A DNA stretch of 64,000 bases from an uncultured Bacteroides sp. (GCA_964500835.1 CAZCQL010000014.1:3029-67028); one strand, 5' to 3'; shown: positions 15,029-62,590, numbered from the stretch's first letter. The notes: a model not told the origin generated them from the letters alone. Made by a program: numbers and translations.

Positions 15029-16021
15029 CTAGGGCACGTGGGTTACATTTCTGTTGGGATCTGCCTCTGCCAGGTTGATCCCGTAAGCCCTGTTGATGTT
15101 TTCATAGTAAAACATTTCAGGAGTAAGGTCCTCCCTGCCTTCCAGGTATTGATCCAGCATGGCGATCATATCGGCATAGGATCCATGCATATCCGAGAGG
15201 GTCCAGTTACTACCAAAGATGACCCTCTCCGGTCCGAATGCATCAATAACCGGATCAATGAGGGGTTTGTAAACATCTGGATTGGTGGGTGCAGGGTCCC
15301 GATTGATCTGGGTATAGAGTGCGGATATTTTACAAAAGACATTGGGTTCTCTGGCAAATTCAGTGAGTCGCGCCACGTAATCACCGGGTGCTACCTGGCC
15401 TCCCTGCATCCTAACTCCTGCCAGGTGATTCATAATGATATTCATATTGGGAAAGCGCCTGGCAATGGCAGTTATCGTTTTTGGGTCCACACCATTTCCA
15501 CCCAGCTCCAGGACCAGGTTTTTCCTGGCCAGATGGGCAAAACTTGCCATAATGCTTGCATCTGCGATGTTGATGGTTGTGGCTGGCCTGATGCGGATTC
15601 CTCTGAATTTCTTATAGGTGCAGAGCGAATCCATATCTGCTACATAAAAGGGGTCACGAGGATCCAGGTTGGCAATAAATGCCACCAGGGCATTGGAGGT
15701 ATCCACATGTTGCATCAGCCAGAAATTGTCTTCTCGTCTCTGACTTGCCTCCACTACCACAGCATAGTCAATACCAGCCGGTGAAGCTGTCTCTACAAAT
15801 TGTTGCGCAAAATGTGGAAAGTAAATCTTCTTGTTAACTGTGGGATTCAGAAAGGTGCTGCTCCCTTCCCGACGGTTATCGTAGAGATGTATGTGGGTAT
15901 CAATCCGTGTTTGAATGGTATCATCATAATCCTGATCAATCTTTAAAGCTGATCCACGGCCCGGACTCTCAACAACCATAGCCACTAGTAAAATAAACAG
16001 GATCAAATCAAATTTCTTCAT
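15029..16021 (-). CDS. Amidohydrolase_2 (PF04909-type) metal-dependent hydrolase with signal peptide; candidate sugar-acid lactonase
   Basis: MKKFDLILFILLVAMVV is the hydrophobic leader. RIDTHIHLYD (HxH), NIIMNHLAG and the overall ~300-aa TIM-barrel pattern fit the COG3618 family, which includes L-rhamnono- and L-fucono-lactonases. Confidence 0.8.
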   Translation of the reverse strand: MKKFDLILFILLVAMVVESPGRGSALKIDQDYDDTIQTRIDTHIHLYDNRREGSSTFLNPTVNKKIYFPHFAQQFVETASPAGIDYAVVVEASQRREDNFWLMQHVDTSNALVAFIANLDPRDPFYVADMDSLCTYKKFRGIRIRPATTINIADASIMASFAHLARKNLVLELGGNGVDPKTITAIARRFPNMNIIMNHLAGVRMQGGQVAPGDYVARLTEFAREPNVFCKISALYTQINRDPAPTNPDVYKPLIDPVIDAFGPERVIFGSNWTLSDMHGSYADMIAMLDQYLEGREDLTPEMFYYENINRAYGINLAEADPNRNVTHVP

Positions 16022-30741: not shown

Positions 30742-31722
30742 CTATGTCTTGATCAGGTTCTTATCCTTGTCATAAAGGAGCCTTCGATACTTTTCGATCT
30801 GGTCTGACTTTCCTTCAGAGCGTGTCAGGAACTCAGCTTTTTCATCCTCAGAAAGCGGAGTAAAATTCTGAACTAGGGACATATTTTCATGGAGTATATC
30901 CATGGAATCGATGCCGGATACTACCGTGGAAACAGGCTGACTAAGGGCATACCTCATTCCCTCCACAGGCGTGGCGATCCCCGATTCTTTCAAATGTCCC
31001 ATTCCATTGGATTTCATGGCAAAAATTCCAATATTGTTCTCCAGACAAAGGGGTAAAACATCTCTTTCAAAACTCACGTTCCGGTGAAAATCCCCAATAT
31101 TGATAGGCATCTGGGTGGTATCCCATGGGTAACCTCTTTTAATCATCTCAATGTGTGCTTTCGGATCGCTGTGTCCTGTGAAGCCAATGTACCTGAAAAT
31201 ACCCTGACTTCTCTGCTCGCCAGCCCATTCAATAAGCTTGTTGTTGAAAATATTGTCCACATCATCATCCTTGTTACCGATGGCATGAAACTGCATGATA
31301 TCAAAGCTGTCCAGCTGGAACCTGCTAAGTGTATCCTCCAGTTGTTTCTTGATTTCGTCCAGCGTACGGGCAGTAAACTTGGTCATCAACAATACCTTTT
31401 CACGGTATCCGTCCTTCAGGGCCTTTCCCATGATAGTTTCGGCCCTTCCCTTGTGGTAGAGCCAAGCATTGTCCATCATGTTAATGCCCTGATCAATGGA
31501 CTTACGAATGATACGAACTCCTTCATCTTCAGGTAAATCAGGATGTGAAACGTGAAACCCCCCCATGGTGAGTATGGAAATTTCCTCTCCCGTACGCCCC
31601 AGGATTCTTTTAGGAATAGTGATTGGTTTCATGCCTGCATAGCTGGATACAGGAAGAAGTGCAGCTCCAGCAGCCAGACCTGTGACCGATTTAATGAAAG
31701 TTCGTCTATTTGGATTTTGCAT
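30742..31722 (-). CDS. Aldo/keto reductase with twin-arginine (Tat) signal
   Basis: Start taken at MQNPNRRTFIKSVTGLAAGAALLPVSSYAG (RRxFIK Tat motif; ATG at 31722). AKR-family pattern follows: LGRTGEEISILTMGG, DNAWLY..G..E, and a GFTGH-type block. Confidence 0.88.
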   Translation of the reverse strand: MQNPNRRTFIKSVTGLAAGAALLPVSSYAGMKPITIPKRILGRTGEEISILTMGGFHVSHPDLPEDEGVRIIRKSIDQGINMMDNAWLYHKGRAETIMGKALKDGYREKVLLMTKFTARTLDEIKKQLEDTLSRFQLDSFDIMQFHAIGNKDDDVDNIFNNKLIEWAGEQRSQGIFRYIGFTGHSDPKAHIEMIKRGYPWDTTQMPINIGDFHRNVSFERDVLPLCLENNIGIFAMKSNGMGHLKESGIATPVEGMRYALSQPVSTVVSGIDSMDILHENMSLVQNFTPLSEDEKAEFLTRSEGKSDQIEKYRRLLYDKDKNLIKT

Positions 31723-37054: not shown

Positions 37055-38431
37055 TTAATCCTTTGCCGGAACTATAGCTCCATGCTTTTCCAAAAGTTGC
37101 CGTATATCTTCCATGGGAACTTCTGCAGGTGTTTTTCCAGACCTGCTGGCCAATACAGCTGCAACCGCAGCTGCCTGTCCCATTCCCATACAAGATGCCT
37201 GAACCCGAAGTGCGGAATTAGCCCCTCTATCACTGCTTATGCACCTTCCCGCCACTACTAGATTTTTGCTTCCCCGGGGGACCAAAGCCCTAAATGGGAT
37301 TGTGGCTACCACATTTTCTGAAAGGTACTCCGGGTGTACGCCACTTTCATCGTGGATGTCGATGGGATAATAGGAATAAGAAATGGCATCCTTAAACACC
37401 TTTCCGCTTACATAATCCGATTGTGTGATCTTATAGAGGCCATCAATTCGATAGGTCTCCCTCACTCCTGTCTCTGTTTGAACTTTCACCACCCTGGTAT
37501 TTTCACAGCCAGGCAATGTTCTCAGAAAACGCAACATCTTAAAAAGAGCCTTGCGACCATTGATATTGGTAATGGAATGGGTTTCTGAAGTGGTAGAGTC
37601 CGCTCCGAAAACATGGCCGCTGAAGGTATAACCATTGCTGTTAAGCACTCCCCGGATGCTGCGGAATTCTTCCCTGACCATCTCCCCCTTTTTTAATTCT
37701 TCACTATACAGGTTCTCCAAATGATCCATGTCCAACATGGACATGTCATACCCTTCCAGAGTGAATAAAAGGGTGCCGGGTTGAGTTTCGACCTCCCTTA
37801 ATACATTGAAACCGGCCATTGATGTGACCAATGCATTACCTGTACAATCAATCATTTGATTGCAGGTAATCTCTGTATGGGTGCCTTTCCCCATCGTCTC
37901 CACGATCCATTTATCCTTTTTAAAATCAATTTTGAAAGGAGTCTCATAAAACCTGAGTTCCACACCGGCCTCGATGCATTTGTCTTCAGCCAGAAGGGTG
38001 TACAGGGGGCCATTTATATACACCTGGTGTTTGGGATGATGTCTGCCATGAGGAATTGAGAAATTGGGTAGTTCATCGTCATTCATTGCCACACATTCCT
38101 CTACCAGTTCCCACCCTATTCCTCCAATAACCTGTCTTCCCCAGGCATGAAAAATTCCGGGAAATGAGACTCCTCCGGTGGTGGTGGTTCCTCCCAACTG
38201 ACTTCCATATTCTACCAGCAGGGTCTTGCTCCCGGCTCTTGCAGCCTGAATGGCGGCAATGGTTCCTGCGGTTCCTCCACCCACCACCAATACATCGGTG
38301 CTAATTTCTTTCTTTCTGGTTTCATAAGGCTTTGCCAGTTCTTCTCCCTTTGCGACCAAAGGAGCAGCGATTCCAAACGAAAGAGCCCCCATCGATTTTA
38401 ACATTGTTCTTCTCTCTATCTTTTCCATCAT
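37055..38431 (-). CDS. FAD-dependent oxidoreductase (PF12831-like) with Tat signal
   Basis: Start taken at MMEKIERRTMLKSMGALSFGIAAPLVAKG (RRxMLK Tat motif). Dinucleotide fold DVLVVGGGTAGTIAAIQAARAGSKTLLVE...GGTTT. Confidence 0.85.
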   Translation of the reverse strand: MMEKIERRTMLKSMGALSFGIAAPLVAKGEELAKPYETRKKEISTDVLVVGGGTAGTIAAIQAARAGSKTLLVEYGSQLGGTTTTGGVSFPGIFHAWGRQVIGGIGWELVEECVAMNDDELPNFSIPHGRHHPKHQVYINGPLYTLLAEDKCIEAGVELRFYETPFKIDFKKDKWIVETMGKGTHTEITCNQMIDCTGNALVTSMAGFNVLREVETQPGTLLFTLEGYDMSMLDMDHLENLYSEELKKGEMVREEFRSIRGVLNSNGYTFSGHVFGADSTTSETHSITNINGRKALFKMLRFLRTLPGCENTRVVKVQTETGVRETYRIDGLYKITQSDYVSGKVFKDAISYSYYPIDIHDESGVHPEYLSENVVATIPFRALVPRGSKNLVVAGRCISSDRGANSALRVQASCMGMGQAAAVAAVLASRSGKTPAEVPMEDIRQLLEKHGAIVPAKD

Positions 38432-38509
38432 ATTCAAAGTAATAGTTTCAGGAAGGATCAGCATCAGCAGGCGGTCAGATTCCTAAAACGGTTATATCCT
38501 GTTTGCCAT

Positions 38510-38727: not shown

Positions 38728-39816
38728 TCAATGAGGCACGGAAAGGGGCAGATCCAGCCAGGCCAGGCCCACATGCCGTTTCATATGACTCGTACTGTTT
38801 CCGCCGGGAGCATCATAAAATAGAGCCAGCTGTTGGCCAACCTGAACCACTGATGGCAGCCCGATGCATTTCTTTGACCAAGAACAATTTTGCCCATCCA
38901 GAACCACCGCCTTCTTCTCAGGATCCCATTGGTTCAAATCCTTGCTCCAATATACCCAGATGGCATCGGTGTATTCTGTTTCATCAATTCCAATATGATT
39001 GGTAAACAAAAACCAGGTCTCAATATTTTTCTCGTAATACAATGTGGAGTTCTCGATCTGCTCTTCGATAGGAACCATGGGTTGTGGGTCGGGAGTCCAG
39101 GGACCATCCAGATCCCTGGTCCTGGCAATGCCCAACGTGCGCTGAACGGATGGAATTCCCTGTTTTTGGGTTGTCGCACTGAAGAACTGAAGGTACTCTT
39201 CCTTGTACCTGATGACCACGCCCGGACTGGCGGTGATGGAATAGTATGTGTTCGGACGGGTTCGAAAAGGGACCACATCCTTCTGCTTGATCCACGGGCC
39301 TGCAGCACTTTTTCCCTTGGCCTTCATCGTAAGATAAGGGAAAGAAGGAACTAGGTCGGGTGGGTCCGAAACGTTGGGCGTTCCCAAGTAGAACATGTGC
39401 CACTGCTCACCATCAAAATAGGTGACCCCATAGGAAGCCGACCTGGAATCCTCTTCATCAGGTCTTCCAAAGTGGAGAATGGGCCCTCTCTTTTCCCAAT
39501 TAATCAGATCTTTACTTACAGCCTGAGAACAGAGCCATCCTCTGGGCCCCGCCGCATCGTAATGCATGTAGTATGTACCATCCGCTTCGAATACCCAGAC
39601 ATCGCGGGCACCGAGTAGGTCACAGTTGTCCGGCCCATCTCCGTACCAGAGTACAATACCATGGTCCTTTGCATCCATCCTCAAGGCGGCCGCCGGTCTT
39701 CCATCAAGGTACAGGCTTCCGGACTGTTTCCCGTTTTCTTCTGTTTGCCCGGTAACTGAAGCGGATGCAGCATAAATGATTAATGCAAAATACGCAATCC
39801 TGGTTGACATAGTCAT
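38728..39816 (-). CDS. Secreted five-bladed beta-propeller glycoside-hydrolase-like protein (GH43/GH32-clan fold)
   Basis: Signal peptide. GARDVWVFEADGTYYMHYDAAG...SKDLINWEKRGPIL...WHMFYLG...GIARTRDLDGPW is the repeated blade pattern of clan GH-F/J propellers. The family is not assignable by eye. Its ATG overlaps the upstream gene's stop (ATGA at 39813..39816). Confidence 0.7.
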   Translation of the reverse strand: MTMSTRIAYFALIIYAASASVTGQTEENGKQSGSLYLDGRPAAALRMDAKDHGIVLWYGDGPDNCDLLGARDVWVFEADGTYYMHYDAAGPRGWLCSQAVSKDLINWEKRGPILHFGRPDEEDSRSASYGVTYFDGEQWHMFYLGTPNVSDPPDLVPSFPYLTMKAKGKSAAGPWIKQKDVVPFRTRPNTYYSITASPGVVIRYKEEYLQFFSATTQKQGIPSVQRTLGIARTRDLDGPWTPDPQPMVPIEEQIENSTLYYEKNIETWFLFTNHIGIDETEYTDAIWVYWSKDLNQWDPEKKAVVLDGQNCSWSKKCIGLPSVVQVGQQLALFYDAPGGNSTSHMKRHVGLAWLDLPLSVPH

Positions 39817-42800
39817 TGCCGTTTTTGTTCTTGATTAATCGCCTCAATAGTGACCGGTCCCAATAGTCCCGATGGAGTGAGTGCCTCTCCCTTCCTGATA
39901 TCTGCTACAGTATAGGTAGTAAAGCGATCAGCCTCCGGAAGCTCCAGGTCTCCCACCATGCGGTTTCTCCACACATTTACCACCTCAACCTCTAGCTGGT
40001 TTGTTCCTGCTTTAAGTAAATCTCTTGTATTCAACCGGTAGGGTGCCATCCAGGCTACCCCCAGATCGGCTCCATTGAGTTTTACCCGGGCCATCACTCC
40101 CACCGCACCCAGGTTCAGGAATAGATCCCCTTCAGGAATCGCCTCCAGGGTAAATGTAGTCGCATAGGTGGCAGTCCCGGAATAATATTTTACCCTCCAG
40201 TCCTCCGATTCGGTCCAGCTGCTCAACCGCATGACCTTCACCGGACTGGCAGGGCCAAACTCCTTATTCTCGAAATCCACCTCCCATTCTGATTCCAGTG
40301 TTGCAATCAATTCAGGCACCGGGGAATTTTCCCCATATCCTGTGCCAACGTTCTCATTGCTGCCCGAGGTAAAGACAATAAAACAGCTTTCATTCTTCTG
40401 CATGGCCAGGGGAACAGTAGTTCTGTTGCCATCGTCCATGAAGTCATTGAGCAGACGAATATCGCCTGTGACCGCATTCCACAATTGAGGCTGAAGACCG
40501 CTTATTCTGAAAGAGGGTTCAAAATTCAGCACTTCATCGCCCTGGTTGGTCAGGAAATAGATCTCCATCCCAGGCAAGGTGCGGTGTGTCCACAGAAAGG
40601 CTGCATCTGCAGGATAGACCACATCTTGAGGAACACCCATATAATCAAGTGCTTCCTGAATTCCCATTCCAGCCAATACATGACCCTCTCCAACGTCGTT
40701 TTCCAGTTTCCCACCGGCATGAGAATCGCCCCACATGCGGTTGGCAATCTCCTTGATCTCCTGGTCGCATTGCGGATAGTTCTGGAGGCTTGGAGACTTT
40801 ATAGGTTTGCCACCCAGGAAGGTCCCGCCAGCCATCGCCAATTCTTCCATTTTAGCAAGTACATGGGGCCTCATATTTGAATTTTCGGGCAGAACCATGA
40901 TCGAATAAGACATTCCATCCGGCAGCACAAACCTGCCATTTTCAACGGATAGCCTCTCCAAAATCACCTCTGCATTGATATAGTCATAGGAATATCCTGC
41001 TGGGAGTTCCGGATCTTTGGTTCCTGTCATTTTTGGCGCATCTTCGCCAATGAAATAGAGTACATCAGCGGCATATTTTCCCTGTTGCAGCATATGCTGG
41101 CACCTCCTGGTGTAGTCCACCCAGGCTTTTCCCTGGTCAAACCAGGTATTCAGACGGTTGAATTCGGTGGAGAACCATGCATTGATACCGGGAGCCTCTT
41201 CCCTCGGCTGCTGGATATACAGATGGAACACATAGTGGTTGATCCCTTCGGTCCAGGACCAGTCTCCCCTCTTTTTCAGCAAAGCAGGATGCCTGGCATA
41301 GGATTGTCCTCCGGCTGTGAATGCTTCTGCCGAAGTAATTGGCTTCCCATAAATATGGGCTGCCGATGAGCCCGATTTACATTCAATATCTCCCAGGCTA
41401 CCCTCGTTCCAGAACTCCCCTGCTACCAGGTCGCTCTGGCCACCATACATCAGGAATTCGCCAGGGTATCCCCAGTGTCCATAATTTTCCAACCACGTTT
41501 TAAGCCCATATTCATTGGCTGCTTTACGTAATCCACCCACATATTCATAGGCTACGTCATCGGCCACCAAACGACGAAGGTCCCAGAGAAATCGATCCGA
41601 CTCTTCCACACTACCAACCACCCTACCGGAAATTGTAGGAAGGTATTTAACTGGGTCATATTCATATTTCTTCTGGAATTTTTCAGCATACCCATCGGTC
41701 CAGTTCTGTGAACCCATCTCATAGCTGTCGGCGATCAGGTATTTTAGCGCCGGGCGGCTCTCTTCCGGGATTCGCTCGATGATTTTAAGCATGTATTGCT
41801 CAAAATGGAATTTTGCCAGCTCGCTGCTGGCCTTGTCAATCTCATATCCTTTTCCCTGGGGGGCGGCCGGCGAATTTTGTGTTCCTGTAGGGGTCATACC
41901 AATGCGTAAAACGGTCCACTTACCCTCAGGCACATCCTCCATGGTCAGGGTTCCACTGGCATCCATCCGGTCGCTCACATCATGCACCTCCGACACCACC
42001 AATCGGGCATCCTTGATAGATTCCTGTGATTCCCAAAGGTAGGTCTCAAATACCGGGAAAGGAGTGGGATGCATCTTTCCAAGGGATTTCTCAATATAAT
42101 TTTCAAGTACCCGGGCTTCCGTTATCCGGATTTCAGCAAAGCCCGCTGCCGTGAGCACCTCTCCTGCTCCGGCAGCTGCATCCCAACTGGCACTTGTGGC
42201 ATTGGTGCACACCAGCCTGAATGATTTTGCATCAGTTTCAGGAATAGAAATGGCCACAGGTCCGTGAGTTACAGGGCCCACATTTACCTTGCTGTTGCTG
42301 CGATCAAATGCAAATGATTTAATGGTCTTATAGGTTCCATCCACCATGGCCTGTAGCTCCACATTGCACTTAAAATCTGGGGTTGCTGGTGTGAGCAGAA
42401 TACTTCGGGCAGCCAGTGATTCTGCAGAAGAGAGAGTTACCACATAGGGATTTTTATTGCTTCCGCTGAAGAGTGCATTCTTCTTTGAAATATAGCTGTC
42501 CTCTGAAGCAATCTTTTGAAAAGCAAGTACATAAGTATCCTGAAACTCTGCTTCGGGTTTCGGAAGATTGACAGTAACGTTTCCTCCTCCCGCAACCGTG
42601 GTTTCTGAGTAGACAAGGTGTCGCATGGCTTTGTCGGAGGTTACCCAGGGTCCGCCACTCTGGCTCCAACCGGGACAGTTAAAGAATCCAATATCGATAC
42701 CAATCCTGTGGCCCTCATTGACCACATGAACCATGGCATCCCACCATTCGTTGCTAAACAATGGCACCGGGCCATCCACCTCATCTGGATTAATGTTTCC

Positions 42801-43061
42801 GATCAGGACCGCTCCCAGTCCAAACTCCTTCATGGCCTCCAGGTCCCTGGTGATCCCCTCCTTGGAAATGTCATCACCAATCCAGTAGTAGTAACACCAT
42901 GGTTTATTGGTATCTGCCGGGATAACAAATCCCTCCTGGATATTGTCATAGACCTCCTGGGCGATCTTTTCCGGACGATCGCAATAGAAAAATGCCATGG
43001 AGAGCAGTATTAACAAAGAAAATCTGTAGATCCTAACAGGTTTCATTGAGTGTTTTTTCAT
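39813..43061 (-). CDS. GH106-like glycoside hydrolase (PF17132-type, probable alpha-L-rhamnosidase), lipoprotein
   Basis: Lipobox-like FFYC. N-terminal block KPWCYYYWIGDDISKEGITRDLEAMKEFGLGAVLIGNI. C-terminal sugar-binding-like domain YSGTATYATTFTL...VKLNGADLGVAWMAPYRLNTRDLLKAGTNQLEVEVVNVWRNRM. Confidence 0.82.
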   Translation of the reverse strand: MKKHSMKPVRIYRFSLLILLSMAFFYCDRPEKIAQEVYDNIQEGFVIPADTNKPWCYYYWIGDDISKEGITRDLEAMKEFGLGAVLIGNINPDEVDGPVPLFSNEWWDAMVHVVNEGHRIGIDIGFFNCPGWSQSGGPWVTSDKAMRHLVYSETTVAGGGNVTVNLPKPEAEFQDTYVLAFQKIASEDSYISKKNALFSGSNKNPYVVTLSSAESLAARSILLTPATPDFKCNVELQAMVDGTYKTIKSFAFDRSNSKVNVGPVTHGPVAISIPETDAKSFRLVCTNATSASWDAAAGAGEVLTAAGFAEIRITEARVLENYIEKSLGKMHPTPFPVFETYLWESQESIKDARLVVSEVHDVSDRMDASGTLTMEDVPEGKWTVLRIGMTPTGTQNSPAAPQGKGYEIDKASSELAKFHFEQYMLKIIERIPEESRPALKYLIADSYEMGSQNWTDGYAEKFQKKYEYDPVKYLPTISGRVVGSVEESDRFLWDLRRLVADDVAYEYVGGLRKAANEYGLKTWLENYGHWGYPGEFLMYGGQSDLVAGEFWNEGSLGDIECKSGSSAAHIYGKPITSAEAFTAGGQSYARHPALLKKRGDWSWTEGINHYVFHLYIQQPREEAPGINAWFSTEFNRLNTWFDQGKAWVDYTRRCQHMLQQGKYAADVLYFIGEDAPKMTGTKDPELPAGYSYDYINAEVILERLSVENGRFVLPDGMSYSIMVLPENSNMRPHVLAKMEELAMAGGTFLGGKPIKSPSLQNYPQCDQEIKEIANRMWGDSHAGGKLENDVGEGHVLAGMGIQEALDYMGVPQDVVYPADAAFLWTHRTLPGMEIYFLTNQGDEVLNFEPSFRISGLQPQLWNAVTGDIRLLNDFMDDGNRTTVPLAMQKNESCFIVFTSGSNENVGTGYGENSPVPELIATLESEWEVDFENKEFGPASPVKVMRLSSWTESEDWRVKYYSGTATYATTFTLEAIPEGDLFLNLGAVGVMARVKLNGADLGVAWMAPYRLNTRDLLKAGTNQLEVEVVNVWRNRMVGDLELPEADRFTTYTVADIRKGEALTPSGLLGPVTIEAINQEQKRQ

Positions 43062-43219: not shown

Positions 43220-46000
43220 TCAGAGATTTATTTTGAACAGGTGTTCTCCAGGATTCAACTTTTGGCTTCCTGAAGGCAATACCAATAGGGCACTTGTATT
43301 TGGAGGAACAGTCACCGAATACTCAAATGTTCCGGATGAAGTCTGTTCCCACGCTGCCCTAATCTCCCCCTGGATGGAATTGTAAGTTGCCTCCGCATGA
43401 TCCAGCCTCCTTATGAAATTGGGACGAAAGATGATCTGTTTGAAACCCGGCTCCTGCTTATCAAAATTGATCCCTGCCAGGTGTCGATAAAAAAAGTTGT
43501 CGACAGCACCCATAAAATGATGGATACGAGAATTTCTCCTGGTAAACCCTTCCCACAGAGTGGTGGCTCCTTCCCCTACCATCCACCCAAATGAGGGCCA
43601 GGTGGGCTCTGTAATCAGGTCAAAGGCCAGATCGGCATACCCGTGTTTGGGCAAATACTCATAGGCAGAATGGATCGCAAAAACTCCTCCATAAAGGTGG
43701 TTCACTTTCTCCTCAACTATGTTTTGAATAAGGCGGCCCTCCACCCGCTCGATATCGTCTTCAGGCACAATCCCATATTCCAGGGCACTCACATTTAAGA
43801 CGGGAACATACTCATCATAAGGCTCATCACCGACATACTCTGCACTCTCAGCATCGTAAATCCATTTATTAATACCGGTTTTCACCCTTTCGGCCTGTTC
43901 TTCAAGCTGTTTCTGATCCTGCTTGTACCCCAGGATACCTGCCATATGTGCCATTCGTTTCAAGACCAGGTGAAAGTTCAGAGCCGCGTTGGCCGCATTC
44001 CCCCCAGGTTTTTGACCCTCCTTATTGGGTAGAGGGGTTACCCAGTCACCCAGCACATCTGTAAAAATACCATCCATTTCGGGCCTGTTGTTATGCTCCC
44101 ATGAGAATCTCACCCAGCGCATCATATTGCTCCAGTACTGTTCAAAGAGTCGGGTGTCTCCGTAATACATATACATGTACCATGGTACATGCACTGCTGC
44201 CGATGACCAGAGTGTGGACTTGCCACGATTATAGTGATTATCAGGTGCAATGATAGCCAGACCTCCGTCGCAGTCCTGGGTGTCGAACATATCCCTGGTA
44301 AATTTCGTCATCAAAGCCGCCAGGTCATAGTTTGCCATCCCGAATTCCATGCCGGTTACTGCATCTCCCATCCATCCGTTCTTCTCCCGGTGGGGACAAT
44401 CTGTGGGGATGCTGTGAAGGTTAAATTTGAGCGATTTGACACAAATATCATGCACCGCATTGGCCACCTCATCCGAACATTCAAAGAATCCCACCCGCGG
44501 AACATCCGAATGTACTTCAATGACCTCAATATCCTCTTTGGAAAGTGTACCCTTGTAGCCAAAGATGGTAGCATAACGGAATCCCTTATAGGTAAACCTG
44601 CAAACTGCTTCTTCACCAGGTTCTCCCTTGGCCACGTATGCCATCTGCTGAAGCTGAGCAGGCTGTTTTGGATCCGTCGGATCCTCATGTTCTCCGAAAT
44701 AAACAAGGATTCTATCCCCTTTTTGTGCTTTGGGAAGTTTGATTCTTAAGCAACCAGCCAGTTGAGTTCCTGCATCAATCCAGATTCCATTTCTCCAGCC
44801 TCCCCGATTCACAACCTCTGCGGGGGGATAGGATTTTACTTTGCGAATGGGTTGACAAAGCTGCGCTGTTAATTCTCCCCCAGGTGAAGGGGCAGGTTGC
44901 ACCGGGTCCCAAGTTGATTCATCCAGACCGGTCTCCGCCCACCCGTCAATTTCTTTGGTAGCATCGTAGATTTCACCCATATGCGGTCCATCATAAACCA
45001 CCGGTCCGCCTGTTACTTTCCACGACAGATCTGATACCAAATCCTCGCTGCTGCCATCGGAATATTCTATTTTGATCCGGCAGATCAGTTTGGGCTGACC
45101 CACGTACCCGTCTTTGCGATAAAAGCCCCAGTGATCGTAGGCCCTTTGGCTGTAGAAGCCACTCCCCAACATCACTCCGAACACATTTTGCCCTTTTCTC
45201 ATTTGAGGGCCTACATCATGGGTGGCATATAGGATGGTTTTTGAGTAGTTGGTCCAACCTGGGTCCAGCACCTGGTCCCCGATACGCTGCCCATTCACAA
45301 ACAATTCATAGTAACCGATGCCACTGATAAAGGCTGTGGCTTTGGCCACCTCTTTGGGAGCATCGAACTCCTTTCTATAAAGAGGAGCAGGATCATATTT
45401 ATTCTTGTCGAAGAAATTATAGCGCTCCCACATATTCATCCGCATCCCAAAATAACTGGGCAAGCCCCACTCGAAGCACTCCTTTTCCACATCCATCTTC
45501 CTCCACCACTCCTGAGCCCACTCCTCCTGAGGCCTCCAGGAGATCCACTCGGCTCCTTTCCAATCGGCTACTGTGAAAAGCCCGGTGGTAAATTTGGCTG
45601 CTTTGCTCCACTCCTGCTCTTTCCCATTCCTGTCCCATATTTTTACTTTCCAAAAATAGGAAGTGGCTGGCTCAAGAGCCTTTCCGTTATATGCGATATG
45701 GGTATTCTGACCCGACTTCTTCTTGCCGGAATCGAGCATATCTCCCTTATCTGTCTGAAGCAGCTCTTCCGAAGTGGCCACCACAATGCGATAGGCCTTT
45801 TGGAACTGCCCTTCCACATCGGAGGAGAGTTGCCAGTAAAATCGGGGATCGGACATGTCCACACCCATGGGATTTTTCATGTATTCACATTTTAGGTTAA
45901 CAACCTCAACCTGTGCACTGAGATGCAGGTGAGCAAGTAAAACCAGAAGCAGAAGAATTATTACCCTATTCATTAAAACTCGGTTTGGTGCTGTATTCAA
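43220..46000 (-). CDS. GH78 alpha-L-rhamnosidase (copy 2)
   Basis: 926 aa with a signal peptide. N-terminus NLKCEYMKNPMGVDMSDPRFYW and catalytic signature IPTDCPHREKNGWMGD. Confidence 0.92.
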   Translation of the reverse strand: MNTAPNRVLMNRVIILLLLVLLAHLHLSAQVEVVNLKCEYMKNPMGVDMSDPRFYWQLSSDVEGQFQKAYRIVVATSEELLQTDKGDMLDSGKKKSGQNTHIAYNGKALEPATSYFWKVKIWDRNGKEQEWSKAAKFTTGLFTVADWKGAEWISWRPQEEWAQEWWRKMDVEKECFEWGLPSYFGMRMNMWERYNFFDKNKYDPAPLYRKEFDAPKEVAKATAFISGIGYYELFVNGQRIGDQVLDPGWTNYSKTILYATHDVGPQMRKGQNVFGVMLGSGFYSQRAYDHWGFYRKDGYVGQPKLICRIKIEYSDGSSEDLVSDLSWKVTGGPVVYDGPHMGEIYDATKEIDGWAETGLDESTWDPVQPAPSPGGELTAQLCQPIRKVKSYPPAEVVNRGGWRNGIWIDAGTQLAGCLRIKLPKAQKGDRILVYFGEHEDPTDPKQPAQLQQMAYVAKGEPGEEAVCRFTYKGFRYATIFGYKGTLSKEDIEVIEVHSDVPRVGFFECSDEVANAVHDICVKSLKFNLHSIPTDCPHREKNGWMGDAVTGMEFGMANYDLAALMTKFTRDMFDTQDCDGGLAIIAPDNHYNRGKSTLWSSAAVHVPWYMYMYYGDTRLFEQYWSNMMRWVRFSWEHNNRPEMDGIFTDVLGDWVTPLPNKEGQKPGGNAANAALNFHLVLKRMAHMAGILGYKQDQKQLEEQAERVKTGINKWIYDAESAEYVGDEPYDEYVPVLNVSALEYGIVPEDDIERVEGRLIQNIVEEKVNHLYGGVFAIHSAYEYLPKHGYADLAFDLITEPTWPSFGWMVGEGATTLWEGFTRRNSRIHHFMGAVDNFFYRHLAGINFDKQEPGFKQIIFRPNFIRRLDHAEATYNSIQGEIRAAWEQTSSGTFEYSVTVPPNTSALLVLPSGSQKLNPGEHLFKINL

Positions 46001-46339
46001 ATATAGTTTATCGCACCAAGCGTTTCAATGACCAGAATGGGCTTTCATTTGTATTATTTGATCCGTTTGAAGGGCTACAATGAGAAGTCCAGAAACTGGT
46101 GGTACGCGGTCCGGGCAAATTATAAAAAAAGAAGTGGATGTAATGAAGCTGAAAATCGTGAAAATGATTTTTTGTTTCAATGTCTCCGGAGTATTAAATG
46201 TGCATTGACAAATAATTTCTGCCAGGGGAAGGCACACCAACTTCTGAAAAGTTTTTCGATAGAATTTCCGTTATATAATAATAGGGCCCTTGTTGGGACA
46301 ATAAAAGAAAAGTCAGTAACTTTTCGCAGCTGCAGAACA

Positions 46340-46474
46340 CAACTAGCCATTGGAAGGATGGGGAAACCGGAAGAAATAGGTTCATTGGCACTCTACCTTT
46401 GCTCAGATGAAGCATCATTTATTACGGGAAGCTGCATTTCCATTAATGGCGGATTTATTACCTTGAACACTTAA
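46340..46474 (+). pseudogene. 3'-terminal remnant of a short-chain dehydrogenase/reductase (SDR) gene
   Basis: LAIGRMGKPEEIGSLALYLCSDEASFITGSCISINGG is the canonical SDR C-terminus (p.gR.g.peEia..v.fLaSdeAsfitGq...vdGG). The preceding ~100 codons of ORF 46028..46474 have no SDR features: no TGxxxGxG and no YxxxK. Confidence 0.55.
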
Positions 46475-46492
46475 ACAGTAGAAAGAGATAGT

Positions 46493-46603
46493 ATGAAACT
46501 TAGTAGATTAGGTATCCCTGGAAACGAAAAACCAGGCAAAGAGATCCAATTGGGGATTGATCGTCTTGGGACCTCAAAACAAACTGTAAAATTGTGGTCC
46601 TGA
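46493..46603 (+). pseudogene. Possible 5'-terminal remnant of a fumarylacetoacetate-hydrolase (FAH) family gene
   Basis: The 36-codon ORF MKLSRLGIPGNEKPGKEIQLGIDRLGTSKQTVKLWS* resembles the conserved FAH-family N-terminus (MKL.R.G.pG.EkPG....dg...dls). It starts 18 nt after the SDR remnant. Short, so tentative. Confidence 0.4.
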
Positions 46604-46640
46604 AAAAACTGATGCCGTCATGTAAATAACGTTACCTCAT

Positions 46641-47915
46641 ATGAATGCAACAACAAAAAAATCCTTTCTGAGGAGAATATGGTATATGATGCTCGCTGTG
46701 GGTCCGGGTTTCTTCGCAATTGGCTATACCATTGGGACGGGCAGTGTAACCTCCATGGCAAAAGCAGGCAGTGAATTCGGCACCCAGCTGATGTGGGTGC
46801 TCGCACTGAGTGTGTTTTTCTCATGGGTGATGATGGAAGCATACGGCCGTTATGCAGTGGTAACAGGAGGGACAGCCATGCACGGCATCAGGGGTAAGAT
46901 CAAATTCGGCAATACCTTGGCCATCGCTATTATCATAGGCTGTGTTATGGCCCAATGGACCTGCCTGTCGGGGATCATTGGCCTCACATCCAACGCTATA
47001 TATGAATTGATCCACATCTTTTTTCCCAGCACATCCTCAACCAGCTACTGGGCCGTGCTGGGTATAGCGATTGTCATGACGCTTATTTTATACGGAATAC
47101 TGCTGCTGGGGGATTATTCATTGTTCGAAAAGATCCTTGTGATATTTGTAACCGTAATGGGTATATCATTTATTGTTTCCATGTTTATCGTTCTCCCGGA
47201 ACCCGGAGAAATATTGAGGGGATTTATACCCTCCATACCCAGTGTACCAGGGGGGAAGCTACTGGTCGCAGCCTTTGTTGGAACCACCATGGCAGCCCCT
47301 GTGTTTGTTACAAGACCCCTGTTTATTAAAGGAAAAGGATGGGGAAAAGAAAACACCAGGGAACAGAGCAGAGATGCCATTGTTTCAGCCATCCTGATGT
47401 TTGTTGTCAGCGGTTCAATTATAATAGCTGCCACCGGCGCCCTGTATCACGAAGGGAAAGTGATCAACAAAGTACTGGACATGGTGTATACCCTCGAACC
47501 TGTGGCCGGAAAATTCGCGGTTGCTCTATTCATGGTAGGCACCCTTAGTGCAGGTATATCCTCCATCTTTCCTATACTTATGGTAGCCCCGCTTTTAATA
47601 GCCGATTATCGCAAAGGTGTGCTCGATACCAAATCCGGTCAATTCAAGGTTGTCACTGCTATTGCCGCCCTGATAGGACTTACAGTCCCCATCCTGGGAT
47701 CTAATCCCATTGTGGCTCAAATCACTACTCAGGTATCCGGTGTTTTCGTTCTCCCGCTGGCGGTTGCAGGCATAGCCCTGCTGGTTAACCGAAAGGAAAT
47801 GGGCATTCACCGTGCAGGCATCGGCTTGAATGCAGGCATGCTGGCTGCCTTTCTGTTTTCCTGCTTCATGTTTTATACGGGAATTTCTGCTTTAATAGAT
47901 TTGTTTGGAAAATAA
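46641..47915 (+). CDS. Nramp-fold (PF01566-like) membrane transporter lacking the DPGN metal-binding motif
   Basis: 424 aa and polytopic. TM1 GPGFFAIGYTIGTGSVTSMAKAGSEFGTQLMWVLALS aligns with Nramp GPG...S.AY.DPGN....Q.GA.fGy.LLWVLL., but DPGN is replaced by IGTG. Confidence 0.85.
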   Translation: MNATTKKSFLRRIWYMMLAVGPGFFAIGYTIGTGSVTSMAKAGSEFGTQLMWVLALSVFFSWVMMEAYGRYAVVTGGTAMHGIRGKIKFGNTLAIAIIIGCVMAQWTCLSGIIGLTSNAIYELIHIFFPSTSSTSYWAVLGIAIVMTLILYGILLLGDYSLFEKILVIFVTVMGISFIVSMFIVLPEPGEILRGFIPSIPSVPGGKLLVAAFVGTTMAAPVFVTRPLFIKGKGWGKENTREQSRDAIVSAILMFVVSGSIIIAATGALYHEGKVINKVLDMVYTLEPVAGKFAVALFMVGTLSAGISSIFPILMVAPLLIADYRKGVLDTKSGQFKVVTAIAALIGLTVPILGSNPIVAQITTQVSGVFVLPLAVAGIALLVNRKEMGIHRAGIGLNAGMLAAFLFSCFMFYTGISALIDLFGK

Positions 47916-47921
47916 GATGAG

Positions 47922-48695
47922 ATGAAGATGATTCAAGAATTTAAAAAGAAACTAAGTGATGGCGAAACGGTATTCGGGCCATTCATGAAAACCTCGGATG
48001 CTGCCTTCGTGGAGATCACAGGTCATGCCGGATTTGATTTTGTGATCCTGGATATGGAACATGCCCCTTTCACCTATGCCAATCTTCAGAACCTGGTCAT
48101 GGCCGCTGAGCTATCCGGAACCCTGCCTGTAGTCAGGGCCCAGAATTCGAACGATATATTTATTTCCAAAGCCCTTGATATTGGGGCATTGGCAGTTCAG
48201 GTTCCCCATATTACAAATGCCGCCGAAGCGGAATCATCTATTTCTGCGGCGAAATTCCATCCTTCGGGTCAGAGAGGAATGGACCCGTTCGTAAGGGCAG
48301 CTTCCTATTCATCGATCCCGCGTGATACATATTTTTCACAGGCCAACGAAACCTTGGTTATCCTGCAACTGGAGGGCAAGGAGGCCATTGACAATCTGGA
48401 TGAGATCATGGATGTAGCCGGAGTTGATATCCTTTTTATCGGGCCCTACGATCTTTCCCAATCCATGGGTGTACCCGGACAGGTTTCTCATCCCAGCGTC
48501 ATCGGGCACATGGAAACTATTGTAACCCGCGCAAAAGAACGAGGAATTGTGGTCGGCACTTTTAGCGATACCCTTGAATCGGCCAGGATGTGGCAAGATG
48601 CCGGGATCCAATATATTTCCTATGGAGTGGATGTCTTTCTATTTAAAAATGCCTGCAACAGCCTGCTGAAGCAACTGCACACTCCCCATAAGTAG
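47922..48695 (+). CDS. HpcH/HpaI-family 2-keto-3-deoxy-sugar-acid aldolase (2-keto-3-deoxy-L-rhamnonate aldolase-like), cytoplasmic
   Basis: FKKKLSDGETVFGPFMKTSDAAFVEITGHAGFDFVILDMEHAP...VVR...ALDIGA..VQVPH...AEAE..I.A.KF.P.G.RG...LQLEGKEAIDNLDEIMDV.GVD.LFIGPYDLS parallels E. coli RhmA/HpcH block for block. No signal peptide. Confidence 0.88.
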   Translation: MKMIQEFKKKLSDGETVFGPFMKTSDAAFVEITGHAGFDFVILDMEHAPFTYANLQNLVMAAELSGTLPVVRAQNSNDIFISKALDIGALAVQVPHITNAAEAESSISAAKFHPSGQRGMDPFVRAASYSSIPRDTYFSQANETLVILQLEGKEAIDNLDEIMDVAGVDILFIGPYDLSQSMGVPGQVSHPSVIGHMETIVTRAKERGIVVGTFSDTLESARMWQDAGIQYISYGVDVFLFKNACNSLLKQLHTPHK

Positions 48696-48841
48696 AATTC
48701 TAAGGAAGATCTGACAGATCCGGGCAAGATTTTTGAATTGTTGAATCGATGATTCTTCGCTGCTTGCCGCGGGGAACGTCAATATGCCTCGTTCCTTAAG
48801 GACACCTTTTTCCGTTGGCAGCCAATTTTTCTTTCATCGGT

Positions 48842-50137
48842 CTATACCTCTAATTCAAAGCCGAATCCCGGACGATCGGGGGGAACCATGTAGATGCCTT
48901 CCGGGCCTTTTGTAATTCCATTTTCCTTGGCATACATTTCATAGACTTCATTGGGACCACCGGGAGCCGGCATGAACATTTCGCACCAGGGACTATTTGG
49001 AGTGGCCATAATAAAATGGGGAGCCCCATCTCTCCATCCGCCATGGGGAATTACCGGGATACCATGAGCTGCAGCCATGGCTCCAATTCTGCGTAATTCG
49101 CTGAGTCCCCCACACCATTCCATATCAGGTTGCCAGATTTTGGCACCCTCATAGTCAAGCAACAACTGGAAACCATAGCGGGTATATTCGTGTTCCCCGG
49201 TTACGATCCTTGTGGAGGTGATTCCTTTATTCAGGCGGCCATATCCGGCGTATTCATCAGGGGGCAGACACTCTTCCATCCAATATACCCGGTAGGGTTC
49301 AAGCATCCTGGCAAATTCAAAGGTATAGTCTTCTGTAAATGCCATCCAGCAATCCAGCATGATCTCCCCATCAGGGCCCAACAAGTTTCTGGCCCTTTCT
49401 ACCAGTTCGATATTTTTTCTCATCCCTTCTCTGCCATCAGCAGGACCATAAGGTATGGCAAGTTTTAATTTTGTAAAACCAAATTCGACATGTTGCTCCA
49501 AATCATTCCCTGTACAATAGGCAGGGATCCGCTCTTTGGTTTTGCCTCCCAGCAATTGGTATACCGGCGTTCCCAGAGCCTTTCCGATCAGATCCCAGAG
49601 TGCATTGTCCACGGCACTGATAGCATGAACGGCGATCCCCTTTCTTCCATAAGACAGGGTTGACCTCCACATGATGTCCCAAAGCCGCTCCACGTTAAAG
49701 GGATCTTCCCCGATCAGTAATTTGGTCAGGTGATTTTCGATCACAAAACCTGCACCTGGTCCCCCAAAGCCAATACCCGAGACTCCCTTGTCAGTCATAA
49801 TTTGTACAGTGGAAAGACCCTGATTACCGGCCATAAATAAGGCCCTGTATGCTTTATATTCCGGGTAAATTGACATGGGATTAGCCACTTCCACCCTGCC
49901 TGTAGACCAGGAACCTTCAGCCGGCTTGTACTCAGGCCAGGGTTTTTTCCTTTTGGGACTGACCATCTTTACCTCAGTGATTTTCAGTTTACTTTTCACC
50001 TCTCTGAAGGGCAAAGGTGGAAGGCTGATCTCAGCCGTAGCAGGCGATACGTGTGTTTCTGCATGGATCTGGCCAAATGGCATTAAGATGGCGGGAGCTG
50101 TGAGTGCCCCGGCCTTAATAAAATGACGTCGTTTCAT
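48842..50137 (-). CDS. rhmD: Enolase-superfamily L-rhamnonate dehydratase homolog with N-terminal Tat signal
   Basis: Blocks shared with E. coli RhmD/YfaW as I recall it: ISAVDNALWDLIGKALGTPVYQLLGG, MLDCWM, WMEECLPPDEYAGY, TGEHEYT, QPDMEWCGGL, DRPGFGFEL. These are preceded by MKRRHFIKAGALTAPAILMPFGQIHA. Confidence 0.9.
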   Translation of the reverse strand: MKRRHFIKAGALTAPAILMPFGQIHAETHVSPATAEISLPPLPFREVKSKLKITEVKMVSPKRKKPWPEYKPAEGSWSTGRVEVANPMSIYPEYKAYRALFMAGNQGLSTVQIMTDKGVSGIGFGGPGAGFVIENHLTKLLIGEDPFNVERLWDIMWRSTLSYGRKGIAVHAISAVDNALWDLIGKALGTPVYQLLGGKTKERIPAYCTGNDLEQHVEFGFTKLKLAIPYGPADGREGMRKNIELVERARNLLGPDGEIMLDCWMAFTEDYTFEFARMLEPYRVYWMEECLPPDEYAGYGRLNKGITSTRIVTGEHEYTRYGFQLLLDYEGAKIWQPDMEWCGGLSELRRIGAMAAAHGIPVIPHGGWRDGAPHFIMATPNSPWCEMFMPAPGGPNEVYEMYAKENGITKGPEGIYMVPPDRPGFGFELEV

Positions 50138-50155
50138 AAGAGCTTTTTAATTAGT

Positions 50156-50332
50156 TTATTTGCTATAGTTAAGGAGGCCGAACCATTCCTGGTACGAAGT
50201 GGCAGGCATATCAATCTCCATGGGATCTTACATGTTTTCACACTTTAGGTGGACTGCTTTCAGGGTTGTCTCTTCGGGAGCAGCAGAGAGAGTTGCTGCA
50301 ATGCAAAATGAGGTAGCCACGAGGGTGTTCAT
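50156..50332 (-). pseudogene. 5' remnant of a fourth GH78 rhamnosidase gene with an in-frame nonsense codon
   Basis: MNTLVATSFCIAATLSAAPEETTLKAVHLKCENM*DPMEIDMPATSYQEW... parallels the N-terminus of GH78 copy 2 (VVNLKCEYMKNPMGVDMSDPRFYW). A TAA sits where copy 2 has Lys. The reading frame ends after ~58 codons. Confidence 0.5.
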
Positions 50333-50455
50333 TTCAAACGTTTATTCATGGTTAAAGCTAATGATTATTTAACTCAAGTTCTGTCCACAGCAGTTATTGC
50401 AACTGACAATGATACCAATACAATGGTCAACAGGATAGTTCTGCTGATTCTCATG

Positions 50456-52662: not shown

Positions 52663-53052
52663 TTAATTTCTTCCAGTTTCTGTTTCATCTTGTTTACGAT
52701 CTCCCTGTCCTTCAATGTATACCCATTTGCCTATTCGGATAGAAAGTGCATTAACGCCCCCGCTGGAAAAGACCAGGGGACGTTCCGGGTCGGGCAGCAC
52801 TGTAAAAGTTTCTCGCTTTTGATGAAGATCTTTGTCATTTCTGTTGCTGCATTCCAGACTCCAGTTGAAGTCTCCCTTTTTTGAAGATGCATAGCGCGCT
52901 TTCCATGTATTACCACCCGCCCAAAATGCGGGCACGTTTTGCGACACTTCAGCCTGAATCAATACTTCGGAACCAGATTGTGCAAACCCGGTTGAACCCA
53001 TTACTACTGACAATGTGAAAGGTAATATTCTATTCATATTCAAGTGTTTCAT
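52663..53052 (-). pseudogene. Short secreted ORF: partial DUF5060-like domain, possibly fused to a sulfatase C-terminal scrap
   Basis: A signal peptide is followed by NVPAFWAGGNTWKARYASSKKGDFNWSL...QKRETFTV. This is clearly paralogous to KIPAFWDGGNTWKVRFAPPETGSYTYRV...KKQSLNV of the upstream 743-aa protein. The tail PLVFSSGGVNALSIRIGKWVYIEG resembles sulfatase C-terminal strands. Its ATG overlaps the upstream stop (ATGA at 53049..53052). It could still be expressed. Confidence 0.45.
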
Positions 53053-62518: not shown

Positions 62519-62590
62519 CCATGGAAGAGTGGTACCAAAGAATGAGAAAAGAATTTGATGCCATTGAACCCGATCACTTATAAAATCATT

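Follow-up and report, generated by a model that had tools for sequence, protein, structure and literature searches.

Proteins of the SLC11/Nramp family are treated as carriers of cations only (Mn, Fe, Mg and Al), and annotation pipelines give all its members the label of divalent metal transporter. Three published signatures describe the substrate site on transmembrane helices (TM) 1 and 6: DxxN–A/CxxM in the classical Nramps, DxxN–AxxT in NRAT and DxxG–TxxA/T in NRMT (PMC8806188). NRMT genes often lie behind M-box riboswitches or beside an MgtE-like fragment, and an old 'Nramp outgroup' has been described as the link between non-metal carriers of the LeuT fold and the metal carriers (PMC4072509). 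Here we describe a gene at positions 46641..47915 (+ strand) of a 64-kb stretch of DNA from an uncultured Bacteroides sp. (CAZCQL010000014.1:3029-67028; the whole stretch is called the window below). It encodes a 424 aa Nramp-fold (SLC11-like) secondary transporter of an Asp-less 'IGTG' subfamily and it too carries the pipeline label; the public records that name it a manganese or divalent metal transporter are probably mistaken.

By genetic evidence, growth on 5-oxoproline requires the Nramp-family protein PxpT (PMC13274462), and the Bacillus subtilis homologue of PxpT, YcsG (PxpG), has been renamed MntG as a Mn importer, its function being disputed (PMC10448178). Like the window transporter, PxpT and YcsG are Nramp-family carriers whose genes lie in an operon for the catabolism of a small organic acid. 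In contrast, their substrate class and partner enzymes are different, the IGTG protein of the window is distant from the IGPGT branch considered below, and no pxpABC 5-oxoprolinase genes were found in the window or at 65 related loci. A first-pass annotation of the window knew of no sugar-acid substrate for the Nramp fold. For sugar acids this agrees with our survey of the literature on Nramp proteins in connection with sugar acids, polysaccharide utilization loci or rhamnose, in which no such substrate assigned to an Nramp-fold protein was found; for organic substrates in general such a statement would need qualifying, given PxpT. One Alteromonas paper labels an Nramp gene in an alginate locus a metal-ion transporter and makes no functional claim for it.

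Two described pathways resemble the genes around the transporter. In the E. coli rhm operon (rhmRDTA, yfaXWVU) the carrier for L-rhamnonate, RhmT, belongs to the major facilitator superfamily (MFS) and the dehydratase RhmD is cytoplasmic; the LRA1–LRA6 non-phosphorylative L-rhamnose pathway of Azotobacter and Sphingomonas is likewise cytoplasmic. As in E. coli, genes for an RhmD-like dehydratase, a transporter and a YfaU-like aldolase lie together here, and the LRA pathway is mirrored by an LRA3-like dehydratase, an aldolase of LRA4-type function, an LRA5-like SDR protein and an LRA6-like hydrolase. However, the carrier here has the Nramp fold and the dehydratase bears a twin-arginine translocation (Tat) leader, which would move the membrane step one reaction later than in the rhm operon; and in contrast to the LRA pathway, the first three predicted steps carry export signals. 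In role the carrier is most like the transporter of an rhm or dgo operon, one reaction downstream and with a different fold. We propose that it forms the inner-membrane step of a two-compartment oxidative L-rhamnose route, importing periplasmic 2-keto-3-deoxy-L-rhamnonate (KDR) or a related 2-keto-3-deoxy sugar acid, and we give this proposal about an even chance of being right. The transporter would then be a LeuT-fold secondary carrier with a known fold and a new substrate class, tied to a compartmentalised form of a known pathway.

Fold and substrate site of the transporter

Residues 36-392 of the transporter match Pfam Nramp PF01566 (178 bits, E 3e-52) over profile positions 1-355 of 357, which places the protein within the broad SLC11/Nramp family. 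Among solved structures its closest match in sequence is the Mg2+ transporter EleNRMT (7qia, E 1.7e-14), followed by the Bacteroides fragilis Nramp (10ky) and human NRAMP1 (9f6p), and the named organisms nearest by transporter sequence are members of the Prolixibacteraceae, for example Mariniphaga and Maribellus. A model computed with AlphaFold2 from an alignment of 111 sequences (37-91% identity) has a mean pLDDT of 83 and a pTM of 0.84, and its helices break at residues 31-32 of TM1 (I31-G32) and 217-218 of TM6 (M217-A218), the positions of the motifs discussed next. When the model was compared with the PDB by Foldseek, DraNramp and EleNRMT came out on top (TM-score 0.78-0.87), the best 26 matches were all Nramp-family (Nramp, NRMT and NRAT proteins and an integrative model of YcsG), and the APC carriers ApcT, AdiC and LAT1 ranked far lower. 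The transporter thus has in common with the classical Nramp/MntH/DMT1 proteins (DraNramp, ScaDMT, BfraNramp, human NRAMP1) the Pfam family, the 11-TM LeuT fold and the unwound TM1 and TM6, and it shares the fold of the NRMT clade (EleNRMT 7qia and CabNRMT) at TM-scores of 0.82-0.87.

The residues of the substrate site are a different matter. Pairwise HMMER alignments to 7qia, 10ky and 9f6p were used to match residues. In the unwound segment of TM1, GYTIGTGSVT (residues 28-37; 46722..46751, +), the transporter reads TIGTG where EleNRMT has NDAGG, the B. fragilis Nramp IDPGN and human NRAMP1 LDPGN, such that the metal-binding Asp is replaced by Ile31 and the Asn by Gly34. In TM6 the segment VGTTMAAPVFVTR (residues 213-225; 47277..47315, +) reads VGTTMAAP against IGTTIAPW in EleNRMT and LGAVVMPH in the classical type, which changes the classical Ala to Thr and Met to Ala; Thr215 and Ala218 form a TxxA pair. 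Neither the DxxN of TM1 nor the A/CxxM of TM6 that mark the classical Nramp/MntH proteins is present, and the classical site is wholly replaced (I..G / T..A). The NRMT signature is matched in its xxG and TxxA parts, but NRMTs retain the TM1 Asp (DxxG) and the window transporter has Ile in its place. The resulting signature, IxxG–TxxA, is that of an NRMT minus the one Asp common to all metal-carrying clades. A further change lies in TM6b, where an invariant Arg225 occupies the place at which classical Nramps, and relatives whose TM6b is of classical type, carry a His (that of NLFLH in these relatives).

These replacements are shared by the relatives. Residues G28, Y29, I31, G32, T33, G34, S35 and T37 of TM1 and G214, T215, T216, F222 and R225 of TM6 are invariant in the 111-sequence alignment, so the loss of the Asp, which the first-pass annotation had already read from TM1 together with that of the Asn, is no sequencing accident. 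The pattern [YF][TM][IV]GTG occurs in 60 of 64 genome-derived homologues (the remaining four were uninspected) and [IV]GTG in 231 of 238 database relatives, GT[TS]…R is kept in 61 of the 64 genome homologues, and in about 290 relatives Ile or Val takes the position of the Asp. All other acidic residues that are invariant (E163, D245, E286 and D322) lie outside the unwound segments of TM1 and TM6, and E163 and E286 appear, on an unsystematic reading of the alignments, to be matched by acidic residues in 10ky (E163 also in NRAMP1); no replacement ligand is therefore evident. Since the metal-binding Asp, Asn and Met are all lost, and since comparison by sequence and structure restores no metal site, we agree with the earlier suggestion that this protein is probably not a Mn/Fe importer.

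It is very improbable, in our estimation, that the transporter is still a carrier of divalent cations (Mg2+ or Mn2+, as in NRMTs or in operon partners of MumT/YcsG type) that supplies a cofactor to the class II aldolase or to an enolase-superfamily enzyme. That view can draw on the kinship with EleNRMT, a Mg2+ transporter with which the TM6 TxxA is shared (PMC8806188), on the NCBIfam model 'Nramp family divalent metal transporter', whose cut-off the protein passes (61 bits against 50), and on YcsG, a catabolic-operon protein reported to raise cellular Mn (PMC10448178). Against it stand the Ile or Val at the Asp position that the classical, NRAT and NRMT clades retain, and the lack of any other invariant acid in the unwound segments. 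The genetic surroundings are also those of a sugar-acid operon, unlike the M-box or MgtE-like settings of the NRMTs: no Rfam family, and so no M-box or Mn riboswitch, was found in the 64-kb window, nor upstream of the transporter at a permissive E<=1, and metal-regulator, metal-efflux and MgtE-like families were absent from the most frequent neighbour families of the 45 related loci described below.

As for what the remodelled site may bind, the backbone amides of the unwound G-T-G of TM1 could hold the carboxylate or alpha-keto head group of the substrate, and Thr215, Thr216 and the invariant Arg225 of TM6b may provide further contacts. In the APC carriers AdiC, ApcT and LAT1, the backbone amides of a G[ST]G in TM1 bind the carboxylate of the substrate. 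These carriers share with the window transporter the LeuT fold and the resemblance in the TM1 G-T-G, and no detectable sequence relationship beyond the fold; we take the resemblance as a lead and not as a test.

The transporter operon and its predicted exported partners

The transporter gene ends in TAA at 47913-47915 and is followed, after the 6-nt spacer GATGAG (47916..47921, +), by the ATG (47922) of a gene on the same strand encoding a class II HpcH/HpaI aldolase of YfaU/RhmA-like type (257 aa; 47922..48695, +; Pfam HpcH_HpaI, 122 bits). The two genes are apparently co-transcribed, judging from this spacer, in which no terminator-like site was found; a promoter and terminator scan of 45900-50400 with a sigma-70 model, which does not extend to the promoters of Bacteroidota, gave no more sites than shuffled sequence. 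The best solved relative of the aldolase is YfaU (2vws, '2-keto-3-deoxy sugar aldolase', E 1.2e-43), and its N-terminus, MKMIQEFKKKLSDGE, has no signal sequence. It scores 152.5 bits against the NCBIfam equivalog model of the KDR aldolase RhmA/YfaU (cut-off 441), with the HpaI and GarL models slightly higher. We propose from these similarities that the aldolase cleaves KDR to pyruvate and L-lactaldehyde.

Converging on this pair, and the next gene downstream, is a gene on the opposite strand (48842..50137, -) for a 431 aa enolase-superfamily protein (Pfam MR_MLE_N/C). Its best PDB relatives are L-rhamnonate dehydratases (2oz3, 3fxg and 2i5q, E 2.6e-81 to about 3.7e-62), and the NCBIfam L-rhamnonate dehydratase model is its best, at 299 bits with a cut-off of 393. 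The protein begins with the Tat-type leader MKRRHFIKAGALTAPAILMPFGQIHA (50057..50137, -), after which the next residues are ET. Tat-exported proteins are marked by an [ST]RRxFLK-type motif, then a hydrophobic stretch, then a cleavage site of AxA type; the N-terminus of the dehydratase, as read from the sequence, fits this pattern and export is predicted. It is the only dehydratase of the locus, and we propose that it produces KDR in the periplasm. An exported enolase-superfamily sugar-acid dehydratase is unusual in itself. The arrangement that the first-pass annotation had described (a stop codon 6 nt before a leaderless aldolase, with a Tat-leadered RhmD relative facing the pair) is borne out in each part.

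A more complete form of the operon is preserved in a close relative. At locus L004 (loci from our surveys are cited by number), whose transporter is 88% identical, the order is SDR (260 aa), FAH (283 aa), transporter and HpcH aldolase, the FAH gene overlapping the transporter start and a dehydratase gene with a Tat leader lying convergent to them. The same SDR-FAH-transporter-HpcH order is present at L075 and L076 (transporters 88-91% identical). The FAH protein of L004 best matches 8gsr, an L-2,4-diketo-3-deoxyrhamnonate hydrolase (E 1.2e-83). The leaderless enzymes of the operon would all act on KDR or on its oxidation product. In the window two remnants stand upstream of the transporter. 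The first (46333..46474, +) is the last ~45 codons of the SDR gene, which in the intact operon holds the position of a KDR 4-dehydrogenase; ~640 bp of its 5' part are missing, the open reading frame (ORF) is 46028..46474, the Pfam match is limited to profile positions 183-235 of 236, and blastn aligns it to L004 9000-9201. The second (46493..46603, +) has 36 codons and joins the first ~15 codons of the FAH hydrolase gene to its last ~17 across a ~738 bp internal deletion. Positions 46333-46537 align to the 3' end of the SDR gene plus 45 nt at the start of FAH, and 46541-46591 to the FAH 3' end. Since both genes are intact in L004, the window genome retains the branch of the aldolase, having lost that of the dehydrogenase and hydrolase.

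Further candidate partners are encoded elsewhere in the window. An aldo/keto reductase (AKR) gene at 30742..31722 (-) encodes a protein with the Tat leader MQNPNRRTFIKSVTGLAAGAALL (N-terminus MQNPNRRTFIKS…) that is a candidate periplasmic L-rhamnose (aldose) 1-dehydrogenase; it shows weak PDB similarity to L-galactose dehydrogenases and is 62.5% identical to the AKR of L079, which adjoins a Tat-lactonase-type gene and a Tat-RhmD relative. An Amidohydro_2 protein with the Sec-type signal MKKFDLILFILLVAMVVES (15029..16021, -) is a candidate periplasmic aldonolactonase; its best PDB match is weak (4dlf, 'Amidohydrolase 2', E 5.5e-10), and 4dlf presumably belongs to the L-fucono-1,5-lactonase family. 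Both proteins may belong to the rhamnose system. A GH106 and a GH78 alpha-L-rhamnosidase, each with a signal peptide (39813..43061, - and 43220..46000, -; Pfam), are the likely source of free L-rhamnose. An FAD-dependent oxidoreductase (PF12831) with a Tat leader is encoded at 37055..38464 (-), in the same region rich in rhamnosidases and sulfatases.

The loss of the metal-binding residues and the place of the gene in a rhamnose-acid operon lead us to suggest, as the most likely reading, that the substrate imported by the transporter is a keto-deoxy sugar acid produced outside the cytoplasm. In the route that we envisage, the exported GH78 and GH106 rhamnosidases would free L-rhamnose, which the Tat-AKR, the Amidohydro_2 protein with its signal peptide and the Tat-leadered RhmD-like enzyme would oxidise, delactonise and dehydrate to KDR in the periplasm. 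The Nramp-like carrier would then bring KDR into the cytoplasm, and the leaderless YfaU-like aldolase would split it to pyruvate and L-lactaldehyde. In close relatives the SDR protein and the diketo-hydrolase would form a second cytoplasmic branch, decayed to remnants in the window.

Other solutes of the pathway have to be considered. The transporter might carry L-lactate or pyruvate (should the periplasm house more of the pathway), export L-lactaldehyde, import L-rhamnose itself or be a broad carboxylate carrier, a family of readings that we find rather improbable. The E. coli and haloarchaeal relatives discussed below suggest quite different organic acids, LutC-like LUD genes are present at some other loci, and in L020, L037, L039 and L059 an exported lipoprotein with weak FAH similarity is encoded 3' of the transporter, all of which would suit a carrier of another substrate. 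In contrast, the leaderless SDR, FAH and aldolase enzymes of the same operon need intracellular KDR, and the Mariniphaga locus has a separate RhaT. Genes labelled 'FAH-like' (cluster 25) were rejected as cytoplasmic consumers of keto-deoxy acids, as their products have lipoprotein-signal N-termini and match FAH weakly (E 3e-4).

Neighbourhoods of related transporters and dehydratases

We surveyed gene neighbourhoods from two sides. On the transporter side, taking one genome per species, 65 loci with homologues 55-88% identical were collected, from Bacteroidota (Prolixibacteraceae, Cyclobacteriaceae, Saprospiraceae and others), Acidobacteriota, Phycisphaerae, Lentisphaeraceae, Kiritimatiellia and Verrucomicrobia; these collapsed to 45 at 90% identity, and neighbours were counted within four genes of the transporter. 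An HpcH aldolase was found at nine of the 45 loci and an enolase-superfamily dehydratase also at nine (eight with a Tat leader and one truncated). A 2-keto-3-deoxygalactonate kinase (DGOK) together with an aldolase of the KDPG (2-keto-3-deoxy-6-phosphogluconate) type was present at three dgo-like loci (L031, L033 and L035), with no dehydratase in ~15 kb, a PfkB kinase at one and an exported BNR_2 (sialidase-like) protein at eleven. At least one of these is found at 24 of the 45 loci, and the SDR, FAH, aldolase and kinase enzymes of the surveyed loci are leaderless. A linkage to sugar-acid genes in related genomes, on which the first-pass annotation had staked its reading, is thus present within the subclade of >=55% identity, and metal genes were never visible there.

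The dehydratases next to the transporters are consistent in their leaders. All 13 assessable transporter-adjacent enolase-superfamily genes encode an RRxF leader with a hydrophobic stretch behind it, which by the same rule is true of 52 of 822 ORFs (6.3%) at these loci; the 13 span at least three sequence types, and another gene is truncated where its contig ends. This observation bears on a further alternative, that the transporter imports an aldonate (L-rhamnonate or another sugar acid) in place of the MFS carrier RhmT and that dehydration is cytoplasmic, the RR leader being unused or the dehydratase being encoded elsewhere. The combination of an RhmD-like protein, a transporter and a YfaU-like aldolase does mirror the E. 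coli rhm operon, and the Cyclobacteriaceae loci, with a pyrroloquinoline quinone (PQQ)-type glucose/sorbosone dehydrogenase (GSDH)-cytochrome c, amidohydrolases, a pyridoxal phosphate (PLP) enzyme and RidA, fit an oxidised amino-sugar acid better. However, in addition to the 13 leaders, the dgo-like loci L031, L033 and L035 have kinase and aldolase and no dehydratase, and in L004, L075 and L076 the transporter stands amid KDR-acting enzymes. We regard aldonate import as unlikely. That KDR is made outside the cell's cytoplasm and cleaved inside it, as the first-pass annotation had proposed, draws support from the intact operon of KDR type, from these leaders and from the exported AKR and Amidohydro_2 proteins, and we consider it as plausible as it is uncertain.

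On the dehydratase side we examined 80 metagenomic loci (L075-L154) with RhmD-like genes 65-91% identical. About 72 of the 78 assessable genes encode an RR leader; a Tat-leader AKR is found at eight of the 80 loci and an Amidohydro_2 protein at three, one of which starts MKRRTFIKNA. On a single 4.4-kb contig, L077, the order is Tat-AKR > Tat-RhmD > <HpcH <Nramp. No other transporter family is prominent near the remaining Tat-RhmD loci of this survey. The recurrence of Tat-AKR, Amidohydro_2 and Tat-RhmD genes, with the transporter at the three closest loci, suggests that the trio is a real and widespread module in which the Nramp-like carrier is a partner in one lineage. RhmD-like enzymes with a Tat leader are widespread in metagenomes from peat, soil, lake and sediment.

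Several observations weigh against KDR import. In the dehydratase survey the transporter lies within 5 kb at just three of the 80 Tat-RhmD loci, the three closest, and 21 of the 45 transporter loci have no recognisable keto-deoxy-acid context (the Cyclobacteriaceae loci described below are examples; some others have SDR or Tat-leader GFO/IDH/MocA oxidoreductases, and eight are uninformative). The sugar-acid linkage is confined to the subclade of >=55% identity: an IGTG sister subclade at 40% identity, from Latescibacterota, Gemmatimonadota and others, occurs in varied contexts without a sugar-acid link. Within the window the AKR and the lactonase-type gene are 15 and 31 kb distant, and recycling of the nicotinamide cofactor by a periplasmic AKR is left without explanation. 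Because the dehydratase and the aldolase both score below their NCBIfam equivalog cut-offs, the sugar could be another 6-deoxy-sugar or a hexonate. Finally, NRMT-type proteins provide a case in which a remodelled site still carries a hydrated cation.

Two groups of loci have other genes next to the transporter. In Cyclobacteriaceae (L010, L013, L015, L018, L021 and others) the genes that flank it encode two amidohydrolases, a 539-aa protein resembling PLP enzymes, RidA/YjgF and FGE-sulfatase/DinB, and these loci also encode the PQQ-type glucose/sorbosone dehydrogenase, fused to cytochrome c, beside SusC/SusD; they may represent an amino-sugar-acid route. At several loci of Bacteroidales, Lentisphaeraceae and Kiritimatiellia a BNR_2 gene lies directly 5' of the transporter-HpcH pair (L002 5773-9962, L003 8801-9988, L007, L052 and L055-L057). 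The BNR_2 proteins are very remote (best PDB E about 1e-4), are sometimes accompanied by a 575-aa protein without a Pfam match, and may liberate ulosonic (2-keto-3-deoxy) acid from a glycan. We considered Kdo (3-deoxy-D-manno-octulosonic acid) or DHA (3-deoxy-D-lyxo-heptulosaric acid) from a locus for a rhamnogalacturonan II-like glycan (GH106, GH78, GH140-like apiosidase and BNR_2) as the substrate in the window and set this aside as the main reading, the enzymes of the operon and of the 88% relative matching the rhamnonate pathway; at the BNR_2-linked loci a substrate of the Kdo/DHA type may still apply.

The wider Asp-less branch and the rest of the window

The transporter belongs to a larger group. 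A search of 1.8 billion cluster representatives with its sequence returned 71 matches at E≤1e-30 and 553 at E≤1e-10. Full-length matches down to about 30% identity carry G[YF]x[IV]GTG, a second type has AAFIGPGT… with a classical-looking TM6b (VVPYNLFLH), and the Asp is present in none among the matches listed. The Asp-less branch extends over several hundred 50%-identity clusters in Bacteroidota, PVC (Planctomycetes-Verrucomicrobia-Chlamydiae) phyla, Acidobacteriota, E. coli and haloarchaea.

Of the second type is HVO_RS04250 on plasmid pHV4 of Haloferax volcanii (L073 5989-7206), with AAFIGPGTVTT in TM1 and LIGTTVVGYNLFLH in TM6. The gene has a stop/start overlap with hydantoinase/oxoprolinase A and B genes, a context that suggests a lactam or oxoproline-type substrate. 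An IGTG-type homologue at 37% identity is present in 546-827 of 5,426 complete E. coli genomes (10-15%). In the record CP054241.1 (L074 8001-9280) the gene is frameshifted and annotated as a divalent metal transporter; it lies on an island between dnaB and qorA with genes for a LacI-type regulator, an acyl-CoA:acetate/3-ketoacid CoA-transferase, an enoyl-CoA hydratase and a 678-aa FAD oxidoreductase. A homologue on a Pseudoalteromonas plasmid has an unrelated gene context. An Agrobacterium plasmid match, considered as a stand-in for PxpT/YcsG, turned out to be an ordinary MntH in a metal context and was set aside.

These contexts lead us to suggest, tentatively and with less confidence than we place in KDR import, that the Asp-less SLC11/Nramp branch (IGTG and IGPGT types) consists of organic-acid carriers, and that the subclade described here provides the inner-membrane connection in an as yet undescribed oxidative pathway for 6-deoxy sugars in the periplasm (Tat-AKR, lactonase and enolase-superfamily dehydratase). 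If so, a sugar-acid branch would extend the chemistry of the Nramp fold, thousands of annotations would have to be corrected, and the branch would offer a natural experiment in which the metal site of a LeuT fold became an anion site. Compartmentalised sugar oxidation in polysaccharide degraders, with dehydrogenase, lactonase and dehydratase in the periplasm, would likewise alter models of carbon flux for rhamnose- and fucose-rich glycans of sea and soil. The occurrence in E. coli makes the branch experimentally accessible.

The window as a whole encodes at least four GH78 and two GH106 rhamnosidases, six or more sulfatases, a SusC-like receptor and two proteins with type IX secretion system (T9SS) tails, a set that evidently targets a sulfated polysaccharide rich in rhamnose (ulvan-like or similar). 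Seven ORFs of 362-991 aa have no Pfam match at E<=1e-5 (15-2135, 17657-20632, 26056-28923, 35873-37033 and 38728-39816 on the - strand; 59836-61926 and 62555-63910 on the + strand); most have signal-peptide-like N-termini and they are candidates for new glycan-active enzymes. A PhyH-type dioxygenase (35018-35833) lies among them. Lastly, a 129-aa ORF with weak DUF5060 similarity (52663-53052, -) overlaps the start of a gene for a 743-aa DUF5060 and apiosidase-like (GH140-type) protein (53049-55280, -), and looks like a duplicated or split N-terminal fragment.

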